From contig VHCO01000010.1 in assembly GCA_016871715.1 (NCBI GenBank), forward strand, positions 194 through 64,193: 64,000 nucleotides of DNA. The letters are read 5' to 3'. The position numbers and the translations under genes were made by a program. Positions 26,910-33,495 of the stretch are shown here, one piece after another. The stretch is from Verrucomicrobiota bacterium (lineage in GTDB: Bacteria > Verrucomicrobiota > Verrucomicrobiia > Limisphaerales > J093). Each line of letters starts with the position of its first letter. The first letter of the stretch is position 1. Below the pieces are notes generated by a model. That model ran no database searches. It worked only from the letters and a program-made list of their open reading frames with translations, and had not been told where the DNA came from.

Positions 26910-29900
26910 ATGAAACGAATCCATTCAGCATCCCTCGCTGCCTTGTCGCTGATCGCCGCCCTTGGTGCCTTGCTCCCACCCGCTGCGGACGCCCGCACCG
27001 CCGCGGATTCCCTCCACTTCCGCAACCTCAGCAGCGAGGCACCCGGCGATCCGGCCCTTCAGGACCGATACCCAATGCTCGCCATTGTGGGAAACAGCAT
27101 CCACCTCGCGTGGCTGGCGGTCTCGGATGACCTGCAGACCCAGCGCCTGCTTTACCGCCGCTCGACCGATGGCGGGCTAACCTTTGAGCCGGTCCGGATC
27201 CTCCTTGATGGCAGTGGGACCGACCTGCATTCCGGACTCTTCAGTCAACACTCCGAGACCGGCCAGGCTCCAGCCTTTCTCGCTGCCGCAGACGGCGGCG
27301 TCCACGTCGTGCTGCTGCGAAGTGGCGGTGGCCTGGCCCCGCAGATCGTCTACCTTCGTTCCACCGATGGTGGCACCACCTTTCAGACCCCGAAAATCCT
27401 CGGCACAGTGGAAACCCATCCGCCCAACCCAAGTCCGGGCAAAGGCCACACCGCGGACCTCGGCCCGCCCTTGGTCGCCGCTGCCGGCGACCGGGTTGCG
27501 ATTGCCTTTCGCTACACTCGGGCGAGCGCCGTGTATACCGAGGTGTTTGGCTGGCAATATGGTTACTACCCTGGGCTTTCCATCTCCCACTCCGCCAACG
27601 GCGGGGCGAGTTTCGAGACCTCGGGCGTCAGCGGCGACCCGCCTACCGCGGTGGCGGCGACTCCCACCCAGTTGACCATTCAGGGCGACGAGGTGCTGTT
27701 GGCGGCGCGAGACAACGAAGCATTCGGCATCGGAGGTCTGAAATCCGCAGTGCACGCCGGGATATCCACCGATGGGGGTGCCAACTTCAGCTTCCGGCGG
27801 CTTCGTGAGCGCTTGGAGACGGCCTTTGGCGACGCGGTGCGAATGGTGAAAACCGGGCCAACCGTACTGGTCTTCTTCAGTTCCGAAGACAGCAGCGAAC
27901 CGGCCTTGGGAACTCTGTTCTGCTGTCGGTCGACGGACGGCGGCACCACCTATTCGCCCCCGCTCCGCCTGACGGACTCCCCGGCACAACTCGCCAATTC
28001 TTCCGGCTTCGCCGCCGCCGCCAACGGCGATGAGATTTTCGTCGGTGCCGTGGATGTATCGGACAGTATGGCCGGCCGCATGTTGGTGCAGCGTTCGACC
28101 GATGCGGGTGCTTCGTTTTCGCCCTGGTCGGTTCTCGCAGATGCCACCAATCCGCGAAGCACGCTGTTGACGCCGGTATCCTGGCCGCGGCTGACAGTGG
28201 TTCCCGGGAACCCGGGCGCAGCCCGTGTCGGACTGCTCTGGGGCGGGAGCTTTCTAGCTCGCAGCAAGGATTCGGCTGCAAGCTATGTGTCCCCGGTGAT
28301 CGTGCGACCGCCGATCGAAGTGATGCGATCAGAGCCGGACATCGCTCCGCAATGGCTTGCTGGACCCGACGGCACGCTGCATCTGGCAACTGCCTCGCGC
28401 TCAAGCGTGCTCCCCGACGAATACGACATCTACTACCGCCGGTTCAGCACGGTGGCCGATCCGGTCGTTCCGGGGCAGGCCTTGGCCATGGATCACGCTG
28501 CCCCACCGCCGGGCGACACGCTCAATCCGCGACATCGCGACTCGCTACAAATTCCGGCAGTACCGGCGCTGGATTTGGGAAGCGCCTTTACCATCGAGTT
28601 CTGGGCCCGTTTCCGCGGCAAGCTTGCCAGCCAACTGCCATTCTCTAGCCAGGCGCTGGGGATTCAGGCCGGCATCGGGCAAACGCCCTCGCTGGAAAAC
28701 CGTTTCCGGCTCACCATGGGCACTACGGACGGCATTTTTGAGGTCACGGGCAGCACCCTCGATCCGCAGCCGGACACTTGGTACCATTTCGCGTTGCGCT
28801 ATGATGCCTCGCTGGCCGCCAACCAACTTGCCCTGCTGATCAACGGCCAAGTCGAGGCACAAGGGAATGCCAGCGGTGCCTGGATTCGCGAGCAAGGCCC
28901 GTTTTACTTCGGCAACACGGTTTTTGATTTCAGTGGTGAGCTCGATGAGATCCGTTTCTGGGACACCGCCCTCTCGGATGCCACCATCCGCAGCCGCTAC
29001 CGGTCGCCGCTGATGGGAACCGAAGCAGGTTTGGTGGCATGGTTTCCGCTCGACGGTCATACCCGCGACGCCACCGGTACCGTTCCCGACGGCCTGCTCT
29101 CCTGCCGGGAGTCCTTTGTCACCGGAGTCTCCTTGGTCGCCGGCGTCCCGGTTCCGGCAGGGCTCGTCAGTTGGTGGCGGGCCGAAGGCAATTTCCTCGA
29201 CCATCAGGGTTCCAACAACGCCACCGGCGTGGGTGGGGTGGGCTTCGCGACCGGCATGGTCAACCAAGCGTTCGACCTCAACGGCACGACCGCCTTGGCT
29301 CAAGTCGTCACGCCGACAGGCCTGCCGCTTGGCGCCGCCCCGCGCACACTCATGCTCTGGTGCAAAACCCCGCGTGTTCTGGTGACTTCAACCGAGTCCG
29401 CGCTGATCCAATATGGCTCGGAAGCCAACAGCCGCATGTTCGGCCTCATCACCTCCGCCAACGCGCCGGGCAAACTCTACTTTTTCGGCTACAATCATGA
29501 CGTCGCCGGCGACACCACGCTCAGCCCGGACAACTGGCACCACATCGCCGTGACCTACGACGGCACCACGGTGCGGCTCTTTGTCGACGGCAATCCCGAC
29601 GGTCAAGCCGTCCGCTCACTCGATACGGCGCTCAACGGCAACGGTCTAACCATCGGCAGCCGCCCCGGCAGTTCCAAATGGCTCGGTCAACTCGACGAAG
29701 TCATGGTCTTCAACCGCGCCCTGGACCCTGCAGAAATCGCCGCCATCCATGCCGCCGGCGAAGCGGGCCTCACCACCGGAGTCATGCCCGTCGCCCCTGG
29801 GCTGACCGTCGTCCGCGATGGCGGGGCGGTGCGGATTGCCTGGCTCTCGGAAAACGGGTTGCGGTACCGGATCCAGACGTCCACCACCCTTGCCGCGGGT

Positions 29901-30008
29901 AGTTGGGCCGACGAAGGACTCCTCCTCGGCACCGGTGGCCCGCTGAGCGCAAACCTGCCCATCGGCCCTGAGCCGCGAATGTTCATCCGCCTGCTCGTGA
30001 GCGAGTGA
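26910..30008 (+). CDS. Secreted BNR/Asp-box (sialidase-like) beta-propeller with two LamG/ConA-like domains and C-terminal putative sorting domain
   Basis: Signal peptide. Asp-boxes RSTDGGLTF, RSTDGGTTF, HSANGGASF, ISTDGGANF, RSTDGGTTY, RSTDAGASF. LamG motifs WYHFALRYD..GELDEIRFW and WHHIAVTYDG..GQLDEVMVF. Confidence 0.85.
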   Translation: MKRIHSASLAALSLIAALGALLPPAADARTAADSLHFRNLSSEAPGDPALQDRYPMLAIVGNSIHLAWLAVSDDLQTQRLLYRRSTDGGLTFEPVRILLDGSGTDLHSGLFSQHSETGQAPAFLAAADGGVHVVLLRSGGGLAPQIVYLRSTDGGTTFQTPKILGTVETHPPNPSPGKGHTADLGPPLVAAAGDRVAIAFRYTRASAVYTEVFGWQYGYYPGLSISHSANGGASFETSGVSGDPPTAVAATPTQLTIQGDEVLLAARDNEAFGIGGLKSAVHAGISTDGGANFSFRRLRERLETAFGDAVRMVKTGPTVLVFFSSEDSSEPALGTLFCCRSTDGGTTYSPPLRLTDSPAQLANSSGFAAAANGDEIFVGAVDVSDSMAGRMLVQRSTDAGASFSPWSVLADATNPRSTLLTPVSWPRLTVVPGNPGAARVGLLWGGSFLARSKDSAASYVSPVIVRPPIEVMRSEPDIAPQWLAGPDGTLHLATASRSSVLPDEYDIYYRRFSTVADPVVPGQALAMDHAAPPPGDTLNPRHRDSLQIPAVPALDLGSAFTIEFWARFRGKLASQLPFSSQALGIQAGIGQTPSLENRFRLTMGTTDGIFEVTGSTLDPQPDTWYHFALRYDASLAANQLALLINGQVEAQGNASGAWIREQGPFYFGNTVFDFSGELDEIRFWDTALSDATIRSRYRSPLMGTEAGLVAWFPLDGHTRDATGTVPDGLLSCRESFVTGVSLVAGVPVPAGLVSWWRAEGNFLDHQGSNNATGVGGVGFATGMVNQAFDLNGTTALAQVVTPTGLPLGAAPRTLMLWCKTPRVLVTSTESALIQYGSEANSRMFGLITSANAPGKLYFFGYNHDVAGDTTLSPDNWHHIAVTYDGTTVRLFVDGNPDGQAVRSLDTALNGNGLTIGSRPGSSKWLGQLDEVMVFNRALDPAEIAAIHAAGEAGLTTGVMPVAPGLTVVRDGGAVRIAWLSENGLRYRIQTSTTLAAGSWADEGLLLGTGGPLSANLPIGPEPRMFIRLLVSE

Positions 30009-30381
30009 ACGGGCAACCACCCCAATCGGAATCGGCACCCACGTGTGGAACTTCGAGCGCGCCACGCGGTTGCTGGATTTGGCCGAGCGCGCGCAGATGA
30101 AGCTCTTGCGTGTCTGGGGCGAAGGGGAGTTGCCGCCGGACTGGTGTTACGACGAGTGCGACCGACGCGCGTTGCTGATCTAGCAGGGCGGCTAGTGCGC
30201 TGCGTGCCGCCGTCACCGTCACCCCCCGTACGCGGTCCGCGTGGGCTTGCGGAGCGCTGCCCGGGACCGCACCTCCCGTACGGTGCCGTTTTCCCCGCGT
30301 GGTTTTCCGCGTTGCCAAGGGCGGAGGGTTGGTTCAGAAAAGGCCGGGTAGGCAACGTGCGGCGTTGAGTCGTTGGCTGCG

Positions 30382-30750
30382 ATGCGTAGAACCGTACCCC
30401 AACCGCCCGTGGATCCGCTCCTGCGAGATGCGGAACGGCACGACTTTTGGCTGGGCTTGGGCGTGGCGCTCGTGGCGATCATCCTGCTGCTGTCCGGTGC
30501 CCGGCACGTGACGGGAATCGAGACCGAGCCCGGTCAATCGGCCCGAGAAACGCAGTTGGTGCGGGCTTTTGCCCGGGGCGGACTCGAGTTCCAGGAAGCA
30601 GTCATATCGTTAGACCCGGCTCTGTTCGAGGACCCAAGCCAAGCGGCCGCCGCACTGGATCGTGCCGCTCGCATCGTCGAGTTGCCCCTCCGGGACCGCT
30701 ACCGGGTGAATCTGGGAGCCAAAGATCCCTGCCCGACGTGAATCAAGTAA
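30382..30750 (+). CDS. Single-pass membrane protein, candidate selenoprotein with C-terminal CxxU (C-P-T-U-I-K)
   Basis: TM helix FWLGLGVALVAIILLLSG. Ends TGC CCG ACG TGA ATC AAG TAA (TGA 30739-30741, TAA 30748-30750). Hairpin immediately downstream. The CDS itself is well supported; Sec recoding is inferred. Confidence 0.7.
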
Positions 30751-30780
30751 GCGACAGCCACACGGCGTGGCTGACCCTTG
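30742..30780 (+). promoter_or_regulatory. Putative bacterial SECIS element
   Basis: Perfect 7-bp stem CAGCCAC (30755-30761) / GTGGCTG (30767-30773) with G-containing loop ACGGC starting 20 nt after the UGA. Possible lower pairing CAAG (30744-30747) / CTTG (30777-30780). Confidence 0.6.
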
Positions 30781-30946
30781 CGAAGGCGGTGAACCCAAGG
30801 ATCGACCGCAGCATGCGGGCCGGGGTTGGGCGCGCCGGTTTGCGGCCTTCTGCACGGCAACTTAAGCTTTGCAGTGTGCACAGTGGTTTCCGGCGCGCAG
30901 CGGATTCCGCGCCCAACCGCCTATTGGTCGTCTATCTGGGTTGCGC

Positions 30947-31855
30947 ATGAGTAAAGGGTCAGGTGTCAGCAGGAGCGAGTGCGGCGAGCGGTCGAGTACG
31001 GAGCTAGGCCGCAAGTTGCAGCGGATTCGGCCGTGGGTGCAAACGGCCTTTCTGGGGGTCTGGCTGGCGCCATTGAGTCGTTGGGTGGGCGGCATCCCGA
31101 GCTGTGTGTTTCACTGTTACTCGTGTCCGCTGGCCTCGTTTGCGTGTCCGGTGGGTGTGGCCGCCAACTATGCAGCGCTGTTCCCGGCGCTGTTCGAGAT
31201 CCCATACTTGTTGCTAGGGGTCTTGGTGTTGGCCGGGATCGCGGTAGGTTCGTTGGCCTGCGGTTGGGCCTGTCCGTTTGGCTTTTTGCAGGATCTCTTG
31301 GGCAAGGTCACTGCCTGGAAGATCGCGTTGCCGGGTTGGGCCGGGCATCTGCGGTACGTCGTGCTGGTAGGCTTGGTGTTGCTTCTGCCGATGGTCCTGG
31401 GCGCCCGCGGCATTCCCTACGAGCGGCAGGTCATCTCGATTTGTCGGCTGTGCCCCGCAGGCGCGCTCGAAGCGGGCTTACCCTACTCGATCCAGAGCCT
31501 GGTGGCGGGTGAGGGTTGGCTCATGAGCTGGTTCAAGACGGCCATTCTCGTGGCGTTCCTCGTTGGGGCGATGGTGGTTTATCGGCCGTGGTGCCGGCTG
31601 TTCTGCCCGCTGGGCGGTTGGTTGGCGATCTTCAATCGGTGGAGTCTCTTCCACTTGCGGTTCGAGGCGCGAGCCTGCGTCGAGTGCAACCTGTGTCGCA
31701 GCCGCTGTCCGGTGGGTGTCCACGTGGATCAGGCGGTCAATGTGCCCGGGTGCATCCGCTGCCTCGAATGCACCACCTGCGGCGCCATCCGACCCGCGCT
31801 GGCGTTACCTCGAGGCCCGGCGCTCGAACGCGTGCCCGAGGACAGGCGGCCGTAA
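30947..31855 (+). CDS. Membrane 4Fe-4S binding protein (NapH/MauN/RdxA-like ferredoxin)
   Basis: CYSCPLASFACPVG, CGWACPFG, CRLCPAG, WCRLFCPLG, CVECNLCRSRCP, CIRCLECTTC. Several TM helices. Confidence 0.9.
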   Translation: MSKGSGVSRSECGERSSTELGRKLQRIRPWVQTAFLGVWLAPLSRWVGGIPSCVFHCYSCPLASFACPVGVAANYAALFPALFEIPYLLLGVLVLAGIAVGSLACGWACPFGFLQDLLGKVTAWKIALPGWAGHLRYVVLVGLVLLLPMVLGARGIPYERQVISICRLCPAGALEAGLPYSIQSLVAGEGWLMSWFKTAILVAFLVGAMVVYRPWCRLFCPLGGWLAIFNRWSLFHLRFEARACVECNLCRSRCPVGVHVDQAVNVPGCIRCLECTTCGAIRPALALPRGPALERVPEDRRP

Positions 31856-31899
31856 GAGCTGAAGGGCAAGGGGCGAAAGTCAGGCGCAGAATCCATCCG

Positions 31900-33495
31900 T
31901 CAGCGGCCCGACTGACCAGGAGGCCGCGGACTGGGTGGTGGCGACATACGGTCGAGGGCTGGGAAGGGGAAATCGGACGAGGGCGTTCGCTGCTCGCGCA
32001 GGATACGCTCGAGCCGAGCCACGAGCTCCGGATGCTGCGCGGCGACATCTGTGGTCTCGGCGCGGTCGGTCTTAAGGTGGTAAAGTTCAAGGCCGAGGTC
32101 GGGCGAGGCGTTGTTGCCGCGCGCCGTGAGGTTGCGACGGATGCCCTTCCAATCCCCCCAATGGACGCTCTGCTGGCCGCCGTAGCCGGGAAACTCGCGG
32201 TAGAGAAACGGACGCGCCGGCTGGGTCTGGCCCAACAGCGTGGGCGCCAAGCTGAACCCGTCCAGGTCTTTAGGCGCCGTCTCCGGTGCGCCCGCCAGGT
32301 CTAGGAGCGTGGGCAGCCAGTCCTCGAAGCCGCTCAAGAAGTCGGTGGCTGAGCCGGGTGGGATGTGCCCCTTCCAACGGACCAGAGTCGGCACGCGGAT
32401 GCCCCCCTCGTAAAGCGTGCCCTTGCCGTCGCGCAACCCACCGGCCGAGTCGAAGAAGGCGCAATCGGTGCCGGCCAAGCCCTGGTGCGTGCCGTTGAGC
32501 GGGCCATTGTCGCTCGAGAAGACAACGACGGTGCGCTCGTCCAAACCCAACTCCCCGATCAAAGTCATCAACCGGCCGATCTCGCGGTCCATGCGGGTGA
32601 TCATAGCGGCGTAGGCAGCCTTCGGGTGGAAGTGCGGGAGGTAACCTTTGCCGCCGACGTAGGGTGGGTCGTCCCAGCGACCGACGTACTCCTCGATCGA
32701 ATCGTTGGGCACCTGCAGCGCCACATGCGGGACGGTCGTGGGCCAGTAGAGGAAGAACGGCCGGGCCCGATGGGCGCGCACGAAGGCCAACGCCCGATCG
32801 GCAATGAGGTCGGCGGAGTATTGGTTGCCTTGAAACCGGCGGTAGGTCGCTGCCCGGTTCGCATCTTCGGTCGGCTCGAGCTTGTCGTGCGCGGAGAAGG
32901 GCGGGTTGTCGAGGGCGACGGTTTTCCCGTTGTCCCAGAGGTAAGTCGGATAGAAATTGTGCGCCACAGCCTGGCAGTTGTAGCCGAACCAGCGATCGAA
33001 GCCCTGCCGGAGCGGTTCTCCCGTCGAGCCTGGCCCACCCAGTCCCCACTTGCCGAAGCCGCCCGTCGCATAGCCTAAGGACCGCAGCAACTCCGGCAGG
33101 GTGACGGTCTCGTCCGGGATGGGATGCTGGCCCTCGACCTCGGGTTGGCCCAAGCGGGACAGGGCGCGATCGCCCATCTGGCGGTTGTTGCGAATGAAGG
33201 CGTGGCCCGGATGTTTGCCGGTCATGAGGACACAGCGCGACGGGGCGCAGACGGCATTGCCGGCATAGTGACGTGTCAACTTCATGCCTTCAGCCGCCAA
33301 GCGATCCAGGTGGGGTGTGCGGATCTTCTGCTGGCCGAAACAGCCGAGGTCGCCATAGCCCAGGTCATCAGCCAAAATGAAGACGATGTTCGGCCGGGCG
33401 GAGGCAGGTGACGCCGGCGCTGCGGTGAGGGTGCGGGGGGTTGGGGCGCCACAGGCCAGGGCGCAGAGTGCCCCCATCGCGATCAGGGATTTCAT
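31900..33495 (-). CDS. Arylsulfatase (formylglycine-dependent sulfatase)
   Basis: PNIVFILADDLGYGD, CAPSRCVLMTG, GKWGLG, SSDNG, LYEGGIRVP. N-terminal signal peptide. Confidence 0.95.
   Translation of the reverse strand: MKSLIAMGALCALACGAPTPRTLTAAPASPASARPNIVFILADDLGYGDLGCFGQQKIRTPHLDRLAAEGMKLTRHYAGNAVCAPSRCVLMTGKHPGHAFIRNNRQMGDRALSRLGQPEVEGQHPIPDETVTLPELLRSLGYATGGFGKWGLGGPGSTGEPLRQGFDRWFGYNCQAVAHNFYPTYLWDNGKTVALDNPPFSAHDKLEPTEDANRAATYRRFQGNQYSADLIADRALAFVRAHRARPFFLYWPTTVPHVALQVPNDSIEEYVGRWDDPPYVGGKGYLPHFHPKAAYAAMITRMDREIGRLMTLIGELGLDERTVVVFSSDNGPLNGTHQGLAGTDCAFFDSAGGLRDGKGTLYEGGIRVPTLVRWKGHIPPGSATDFLSGFEDWLPTLLDLAGAPETAPKDLDGFSLAPTLLGQTQPARPFLYREFPGYGGQQSVHWGDWKGIRRNLTARGNNASPDLGLELYHLKTDRAETTDVAAQHPELVARLERILREQRTPSSDFPFPALDRMSPPPSPRPPGQSGR

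Follow-up and report, generated by a model that had tools for sequence, protein, structure and literature searches.

A probable C-P-T-U selenoprotein encoded beside a NapH-like membrane ferredoxin in Verrucomicrobiota

Results

A short gene with a probable selenocysteine codon near its end

The subject of this work is a short gene (30382..30750, forward strand) within a 64,000-nucleotide stretch of Verrucomicrobiota DNA, the whole of which is referred to here as the window. Comparison with related sequences indicates that it very probably encodes a genuine, unannotated selenoprotein, in which a UGA codon close to the end of the reading frame is decoded as selenocysteine (Sec); its immediate downstream neighbour encodes a polytopic membrane ferredoxin. 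The assembly that includes the window (on its contig C10) comprises 8.58 Mb in 554 contigs and is 94.5% complete with 2.9% contamination. The ATG at 30382 is in frame with the codons TGC CCG ACG TGA ATC AAG TAA at 30730-30750, and an alternative TTG start is found at 30373. The first-pass annotation of this DNA had described a 119-codon open reading frame (ORF) that ends D-P-C-P-T-TGA-I-K-TAA and whose only cysteine (Cys) is three codons ahead of the TGA. This can be read directly in the window: the C-terminal residues ...GAK-D-P-C-P-T are followed by TGA at 30739-30741, ATC, AAG and TAA at 30748-30750, and Cys117 is the sole Cys. The 119 codons would thus be extended by Sec, Ile and Lys before the UAA, and the orthologues at 26 loci plus the metagenome contig L058 end alike.

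The predicted product consists of a single-pass membrane anchor, an Ala/Pro-rich linker and a C-terminal C-P-T-U-I-K. The predicted transmembrane (TM) helix is encoded at 30448..30501 (approximately residues 23-40), and the hydrophobic maximum of the small protein begins at a median residue of 21 in 51 homologues. The C-P-T-U motif (TGC CCG ACG TGA, 30730..30741, with the putative Sec codon at 30739-30741) is invariant in alignments A1 and A5. The Ile-Lys tail and the true stop TAA occupy 30742..30750, and the third codon after the UGA is a stop at every locus. The letters across the TGA are identical in contigs of four lake-water runs, one of which is possibly the source of the assembly while the others possibly belong to one campaign.

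Conservation of the UGA and of the codons behind it

Sixty relatives were searched in six frames, and a contig scan with one genome per species gave 26 loci, 25 of them complete and the 26th running off its contig. Eight of the contig-scan loci duplicate those of the relatives, as judged by identical sequences. The set of close homologues (type 1) therefore stands at 27 loci, namely 26 distinct loci including the window and L058. The six-frame search found the small gene in 8 of the 60 relatives, each match holding exactly one TGA.

At all 27 type-1 loci the frame reads C-P-T, TGA, one of I, V, M or L, one of K, R or H, and a stop. The aliphatic residue is specified by GTG (12 loci), ATA (6), ATC (4), ATG (3), GTA (1) or CTG (1), and the basic residue by AAG (11), AAA (10), AGA (2), AGG (1), CGC (1), CAC (1) or CAT (1). 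The closing stop is TAA at 12 loci, TGA at 12 and TAG at 3. The first stop is TGA in 27/27, compared with a background of about 54% for TGA as the stop codon (2226 of 4095 ORFs of at least 400 codons in the window's genome). A residue class kept through unrelated codons, mixed closing stops and an unvarying TGA together form a signature of translation through the UGA. The first-pass annotation had proposed examining homologues for the codon at this position and for the residues behind it; no locus with TAA or TAG was found here, and the tail was conserved at every one of the 27. A conserved in-frame UGA was also present at locus L061 and in nine distant partners described below.

A covarying hairpin behind the true stop

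A 7-base-pair stem with an ACGGC loop 20 nucleotides past the UGA had been noted as resembling a selenocysteine insertion sequence (SECIS). The hairpin is present in the window (30755..30773, forward strand) and lies wholly 3' of the true stop, with stem arms CAGCCAC at 30755-30761 and GTGGCTG at 30767-30773 and the loop ACGGC at 30762-30766. It begins 13 nucleotides past the UGA and has a minimum free energy (MFE) of -11.0 kcal/mol. All 27 type-1 loci have a hairpin here, with a stem of 6-8 base pairs, a UGA-to-loop distance of 19-23 nucleotides and an MFE of -8.6 to -16.1 kcal/mol. Alignment A2, of 26 sequences, has 88% of the stem cells paired, and slid registers fall to 23-49%. Compensatory change was observed in 6 of 8 tested stem pairs (pair 34-42, for example, is A-U in 19 sequences, G-C in 6 and G-U in 1), and none of 500 shuffles matched the observed covariation. 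The GG of the loop is invariant. A lower pairing, CAAG/CTTG, had been suggested as well; it does form in the window's own MFE fold, but it is not conserved, the next pair outward being unpaired in 20 of the 26 sequences.

The bacterial SECIS (bSECIS) model asks for a loop of 3-9 nucleotides, a stem of 4-16 base pairs, a UGA-to-loop distance of 16-37 nucleotides and an MFE of at most -7.5 (PMC13188914). The geometry, spacing and energy of the hairpins fall within these ranges at 27/27 loci. The model also asks for a G in the first two loop positions, which some bSECIS elements do not fit, and bacterial SECIS elements normally lie within the coding sequence (PMC13188914). In the present hairpins the GG stands at positions 3-4 of a 5-nucleotide loop, or at positions 2-3 if the loop is taken as a Y-G-G triloop. 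No T-run follows the hairpin and a terminator scan of 30000-32000 was empty; a reading of the hairpin as a terminator was ruled out, since that interval holds no terminator-like site. A second hairpin-linked UGA candidate, on contig C66, was dropped because its upstream frame looks non-coding.

Sec machinery and its linkage to the gene pair

The genome that contains the window encodes selA (528 and 454 bits), selB (316 and 293 bits), selD (375 bits, with one in-frame TGA at ...SCAG-U-ASK) and two tRNA-Sec with anticodon TCA, both confirmed by ARAGORN. A third Rfam tRNA-Sec match over the cut-off is a tRNA-Ser. All four components for which the first-pass annotation had suggested a search are thus in the genome. 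Its remark that the window itself holds no sel genes was also correct: there is no tRNA in the window, and the sel genes are on other contigs. The two copies each of selA, selB and tRNA-Sec are on contigs C1, C34, C223, C3 and C165 of G000 (loci L001-L004, L015 and L016), with one selA-selB pair adjacent on C1; duplication and the 2.9% contamination are both possible, and one relative (G004) also has two selB matches.

Co-occurrence with selB is given as counts, the relatives not being independent. selB was present in 8/8 relatives with the small gene, and the small gene was found in 0/34 selB-negative relatives. Furthermore, in 18 of the 25 complete loci ARAGORN places a tRNA-Sec gene on the same strand, 18-371 nucleotides upstream of the start codon (median about 44). 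A selD-AhpD-like fusion gene lies convergent just past the ferredoxin gene in 5 loci (TIGR00476, 323-328 bits in the two tested), and selB is near the pair in 3 type-1 loci. The flanking of the pair by tRNA-Sec, selD and selB in most relatives is a context that the first-pass annotation did not contain. By the names of the homologues, the lineage is Verrucomicrobiota, Limisphaerales-type, and not Clostridia.

Two side observations concern these loci. The selD genes carry an AhpD/CMD-like C-terminal domain (L055:1444-3363 and L052:4416-6149, both on the reverse strand) that gives weak matches to AhpD-domain selenoprotein models. In addition, gene callers that translate the tRNA-Sec gene, which is upstream of the small gene at 18 loci (for example L033:2865-2962), have produced a false N-terminal extension, LLVFKTSVGLNKV.GGFDSHPPPP…, and such tRNA-Sec-derived extensions are found in the small protein or in upstream ORFs (P0124, P0134, P0151, P0155 and P0161).

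The adjacent gene encodes a NapH-like polytopic ferredoxin

The next gene (30947..31855, forward strand) had been described as a polytopic ferredoxin with an extra N-terminal Cys motif. The motif is seen as CVFHCYSCP...ACP, and the product matches Pfam Fer4_5 at 32.2 bits against a cut-off of 22, with CX3CP and 2x[4Fe-4S] Cys motifs present. The NapH/MauN model TIGR02163 gives 46.2 bits, below its cut-off of 213.05; source annotations name the protein 'ferredoxin-type protein NapH' or 'polyferredoxin'. The protein has four predicted TM helices. Across 21 orthologues, with a mean identity of 66%, 18 Cys are invariant. They comprise C-x3-C-x2-C-P-x5-C-P in loop 1 (31103..31150, forward strand; C53, C57, C60 and C67), C-x2-C-P in loop 3, two CX3CP motifs and the two 4-Cys motifs of the 2x[4Fe-4S] domain. 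Six of the invariant Cys are in loops predicted to face outward, and the loop-1 motif is predicted to touch the small protein. A PDB sequence search with the ferredoxin returned nothing below E 0.08, and no nap, nos or cco genes were found near the pair.

In an all-against-all ORF comparison the ferredoxin gene came directly after the small gene, in the same orientation, at 25 of 26 loci; any other real neighbour was common to at most 8 of the 26. Two ORF clusters present in 24-25 loci were taken as spurious, as they overlap the pair in other frames or antisense. Among the relatives, the distribution of the close ferredoxin orthologue coincides with that of the small gene (the same 8 genomes); in addition, a genome of another family (G038) has a 49%-identical copy. 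Upstream of that copy is a divergent small membrane protein ending A-A-C-P-T, TGA, GGG, AGC, TAA, with an 8-base-pair hairpin and a UGU loop. The pair is split in one genome, G009: the ferredoxin gene, with tRNA-Sec directly upstream, is on one contig (L060, G009:C3:215400-218400), and the small Sec gene is on another (L027/L041), beside a gene for a carboxypeptidase-regulatory-repeat protein.

Distant forms of the pair across the phylum

The ferredoxin was used to search 400 genomes sampled evenly across the phylum. This yielded 10 distant ferredoxin homologues of 35-44% identity, and at 9/10 of these loci the gene upstream ends C-P-[TS]-TGA, several with hairpins that have GGU loops. In the remaining case (L064, G125:C7) no C-P-[TS]-TGA gene was found within 700 nucleotides upstream; this genome is selB-positive. 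Seven of the nine distant partners are short and membrane-anchored, with at most one residue between the putative Sec and the stop. The other two (type 3) have a signal peptide and an internal ...C-P-S-U-G-G-S-G-G-Y, continue for 42 further residues and carry a GGU-loop hairpin inside the ORF. A selB match was found in 10/10 distant genomes, nine of them over the family cut-off and one (G394) just under it at 236.8 bits. In 6 of the 10 selB is directly beside the pair, and at one locus tRNA-Sec is there too.

The ferredoxin was the more sensitive probe, as a profile of the small protein gave 0/400 matches in the same sample. The distant partner types matched nothing in Pfam and NCBIfam. Profiles of the type 1 and type 2 partners align over the last 15 residues only (probability 33%), and homology beyond the tail is not supported. 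What stays constant is therefore the C-P-[TS]-U motif, the ferredoxin and the closeness to the Sec machinery. On this sequence evidence, the arrangement is a phylum-wide module of a predicted C-P-[TS]-U selenoprotein and a polyferredoxin, situated in Sec-machinery loci.

A modelled complex of the two proteins

The two proteins were modelled together from the window proteins and their database matches (A7, 40 rows; A8, 51 rows) with three 4Fe-4S ligands, and the small protein was truncated at CPT. The median interaction prediction score from aligned errors (ipSAE) was 0.67, compared with 0.00 for the best of three controls. The runs shared at least 77% of their contacts and the predicted local distance difference test (pLDDT) of the partner was at least 68. 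Of 80 solved complexes 58 attain the ipSAE mark, as do 2 of 110 mismatched pairs; these counts are a rough guide here, given the custom alignments and the ligand. Modelled contacts join residues 7-24 of the small protein to residues 232-288 of the ferredoxin (the Fe-S domain), the helix 25-40 to TM2 (residues 86-99), and residues 42-70 to loop 1 (48-84) and to 155-160, such that the segment behind the helix meets loops 1 and 3.

Counts of K+R residues in the ferredoxin average 5.2 at the N-terminus, 2.8 in loop 2 and 3.9 after TM4, against 0.0 in loop 1 and 2.5 in loop 3 (where D+E is 3.1). These counts fit a four-TM ferredoxin with its N-terminus in the cytoplasm and loops 1 and 3 facing outward, which is presumably the topology of NapH itself. 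The small protein likewise fits an N-in orientation (2.4 vs 1.2). The type-3 partners have signal peptides, an independent indication that the C-P-x-U motif acts extracytoplasmically. The first-pass annotation had paired the two genes by adjacency; the pairing is upheld by its presence in 25/26 loci, by the exact co-occurrence in relatives and by a complex model that scores well above its controls. Together these three lines argue for a two-subunit membrane complex. On the strength of the model, we regard a physical complex of the two proteins with this topology as likely.

All database forms end at the same point

A search of a 5.8-billion-protein set returned 504 clusters at E <= 0.001, and among the matches listed 120/120 end CPT. 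When 1.84 billion representatives were searched with a profile, 101 matched; 86 of these end C-x-T (81 of them CPT), and the remaining 15 comprise fragments, frame-shifted pieces and one sequence ending V-S-T. A search with alignment A3, built on the distant small-protein group, gave 12 matches only. The best match of the small protein in the ESM Atlas, at 0.75, was uninformative. The first-pass annotation had pointed to a Clostridial precedent, small membrane proteins of the CD1871A-like kind ending in CxxC-I, but this was not found in the literature and no Cys-form homologue was encountered. Nearly all selenoprotein families have Cys-containing homologues (PMC13188914). Searches that rely on Cys/Sec pairs would miss the present family, for which no such homologue was found.

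Neighbouring features in the window

The pair adjoins a gene for a 1032-amino-acid BNR/sialidase-like and LamG-domain protein on one side (26910-30008, forward strand) and a sulfatase gene on the other (31900-33495, reverse strand). Both are typical polysaccharide-degrading genes, and they are not kept beside the pair at other loci. In the spacer ahead of the ferredoxin gene, at 30885-30921, is a GC-rich stretch of about 31 bases with an inverted repeat. It is matched, at 3 differences, by many short contigs whose summed depth is far higher in all four lake-water runs, and it may be a dispersed repeat.

Discussion

We think it probable, with good though not complete confidence, that the findings as a whole are best explained by a selenoprotein that forms a complex with the adjacent ferredoxin and takes part in a trans-membrane relay. 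In this scheme the hairpin at 30755-30773 would recruit SelB with Sec-tRNA(Sec) as the ribosome meets the UGA at 30739-30741; Sec would be inserted, Ile and Lys added, and the UAA would end translation. The product would keep its N-terminus in the cytoplasm, and its flexible linker would hold the C-P-T-U-I-K tail on the outer face of the membrane. The small protein would form a complex with the adjacent NapH-like ferredoxin, which carries two cytoplasmic [4Fe-4S] motifs. Electrons could enter at the cytoplasmic Fe-S domain and cross the membrane subunit to the outward Cys-rich loops, where the six outward Cys might form disulfides, bind a metal or hold a cluster. Reduction of the Cys-Sec selenylsulfide in the tail would follow, and the tail would serve as a swinging arm to an extracytoplasmic acceptor. 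The direction of electron flow and the relay function are drawn from the anatomy of the two proteins and are put forward tentatively, at somewhat less than even odds.

Several observations weigh against parts of this scheme. The loop of the hairpin fits the G rule loosely, a canonical triloop closing pair being possible in 11/27 loci, and an Rfam scan of 30600-30950 returned no SECIS family and two chance-level matches only. No C-x-x-C continuation was found among the 120 matches listed or the 101 representatives, and the Cys/Sec-pair criterion is thus inapplicable; the absence of a Cys form is a mark against this customary test but not against Sec as such. The small gene is missing from 18 of the 26 selB-positive relatives and hence is not needed for the Sec trait. 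The window's own genome has none of the linkage to tRNA-Sec, selD or selB, and its two tRNA-Sec genes adjoin unrelated genes. On the structural side, the C-terminal tail lies outside the confident interface of the complex model, and an AlphaFold2 model of the ferredoxin alone (A7) was poor, with a mean pLDDT of 58. Finally, insertion of an Fe-S cluster into an outward-facing loop would be unusual.

The most serious alternative concerns function. The pair could supply selenium, with the outward Cys-Sec tail capturing oxidised or elemental selenium and the ferredoxin reducing it to selenide for SelD. Such a role is suggested by the recurrent proximity of selC, selD and selB: tRNA-Sec is directly upstream in 18/25 loci, selD and selB are adjacent in type-1 loci, and selB is adjacent in 6/10 distant genomes. 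However, the 18 of 26 selB-positive relatives that do without the pair speak against it, as does the separation of the pair from all sel genes in the window's genome. Moreover, genes of client selenoproteins can also adjoin sel genes, which counts against reading the linkage as supply. We consider a selenium-supply role unlikely. A stronger form of the idea, that selC, the C-P-T-U protein and the polyferredoxin, with selD and selB, cluster as a dedicated selenium-acquisition module, is more doubtful still. If it were true, co-transcription of tRNA-Sec with the mRNA of its own client would add a coupling of supply and demand. Because the pair is closely linked to tRNA-Sec, selD and selB in a number of divergent lineages, its involvement in selenium metabolism can be tested directly.

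A second alternative denies the selenoprotein itself. The UGA could be an ordinary stop, with a protein that ends at CPT and a hairpin that serves as an intergenic element for processing, stability or attenuation. All database annotations do end at CPT, the hairpin is in an intergenic region, and its loop is not strictly within the bSECIS G-position rule. An ordinary stop would leave TGA in 27/27 loci to be set against a background of about 54%, together with an in-frame stop exactly two codons further on in 27/27 and two intervening codons conserved as amino acids through unrelated codons. It also sits badly with a gene confined to selB-positive genomes and linked to tRNA-Sec, selD and selB, with type-3 relatives that run 42 codons past the CPS-TGA, and with a hairpin that has no T-run behind it. 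We judge this alternative to be very improbable. Least credible of all is that the UGA is read as something other than Sec, as Trp or Cys by near-cognate decoding or local reassignment: UGA-to-Trp reassignment is reported for some Verrucomicrobiota (PMC13462651), but UGA is the true closing stop in 12/27 of these same genes, the residues form a C-x-x-U redox motif, and the full Sec machinery is present and genetically linked.

With a Sec-decoded UGA retained as the preferred reading, the current catalogue appears to lack a selenoprotein family. None of the members tested matches a Pfam or NCBIfam (release 20) model, and Table 1 of PMC13188914, in the passages compared, shows no C-P-T-U membrane protein family. 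No description of the small-protein family was found in the literature searched, and an earlier one, in Haft & Tolstoy 2025 or in supplements to the literature, is possible. The lack of Cys forms and the placement of the SECIS are probably why the family was missed. For the same reasons, no Cys forms and a loosely fitting SECIS behind the stop, at least 504 database clusters would be mis-annotated as ending at CPT. The pair offers a concrete two-protein system in which an extracytoplasmic Sec redox centre would be fed by a membrane Fe-S protein.

Among known selenoproteins, the closest in layout are UXX-star 1 and 2 (NF041114 and NF041211), KCU-star (NF033934) and SaoC, which likewise have Sec within the last three residues and the SECIS after the true stop. 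In these families, as in the small-protein family, a Sec near the extreme C-terminus means that annotations are cut at the UGA. SaoC ends UGA-UAG and is followed by a 7-base-pair stem with a GGU loop (10.1101/2022.07.06.499078; PMC13188914, Table 1). There is no sequence relationship to these families, no NCBIfam model having matched at E up to 10. In particular, the UXX-star models gave no match to six members at E up to 10, nor in a scan at E up to 0.1, and only the U-x-x-stop layout is in common. Unlike UXX-star, KCU-star and SaoC, the present family is membrane-anchored, has the motif C-P-T-U and no Cys forms, and shows an obligate ferredoxin neighbour and linkage to tRNA-Sec. The partner resembles the polytopic ferredoxins NapH, MauN, NosR and CcoG in its Fer4_5 domain, four TM helices, two CX3CP motifs and C-terminal 2x[4Fe-4S] domain. 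In contrast to NapH and MauN, it scores below the family cut-off, carries six additional invariant Cys (loops 1 and 3) and has no nap, nos or cco genes nearby.

The Cys-Sec pair on a flexible terminal segment recalls the GCUG of thioredoxin reductase and the CxxU of GrdA. In thioredoxin reductase the tail carries electrons between a buried centre and the substrate. The CxxU of GrdA is redox-active (PMC13188914). In contrast to both, to which there is no homology, the electrons would here come from a distinct Fe-S subunit in the membrane, and the tail is predicted to lie outside the cytoplasm. The overall build of the small protein is similar to that of the eukaryotic SELENOK and SELENOS, in which a single-pass anchor towards the N-terminus is joined to a disordered region rich in Pro and Gly, with Sec as the second or third residue from the C-terminal end. 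Those proteins belong to another domain of life and to another SECIS type, however, their tails face the cytosol, and similarity in sequence would not be expected. Lastly, DsbD differs from the proposed relay in having Cys pairs only, a thioredoxin donor, no Fe-S domain and no Sec, and no homology to it was found. The logic is nevertheless the same, since DsbD/CcdA proteins pass cytoplasmic reducing power to an extracytoplasmic thiol-type centre, as the C-P-T-U protein and its ferredoxin may do.

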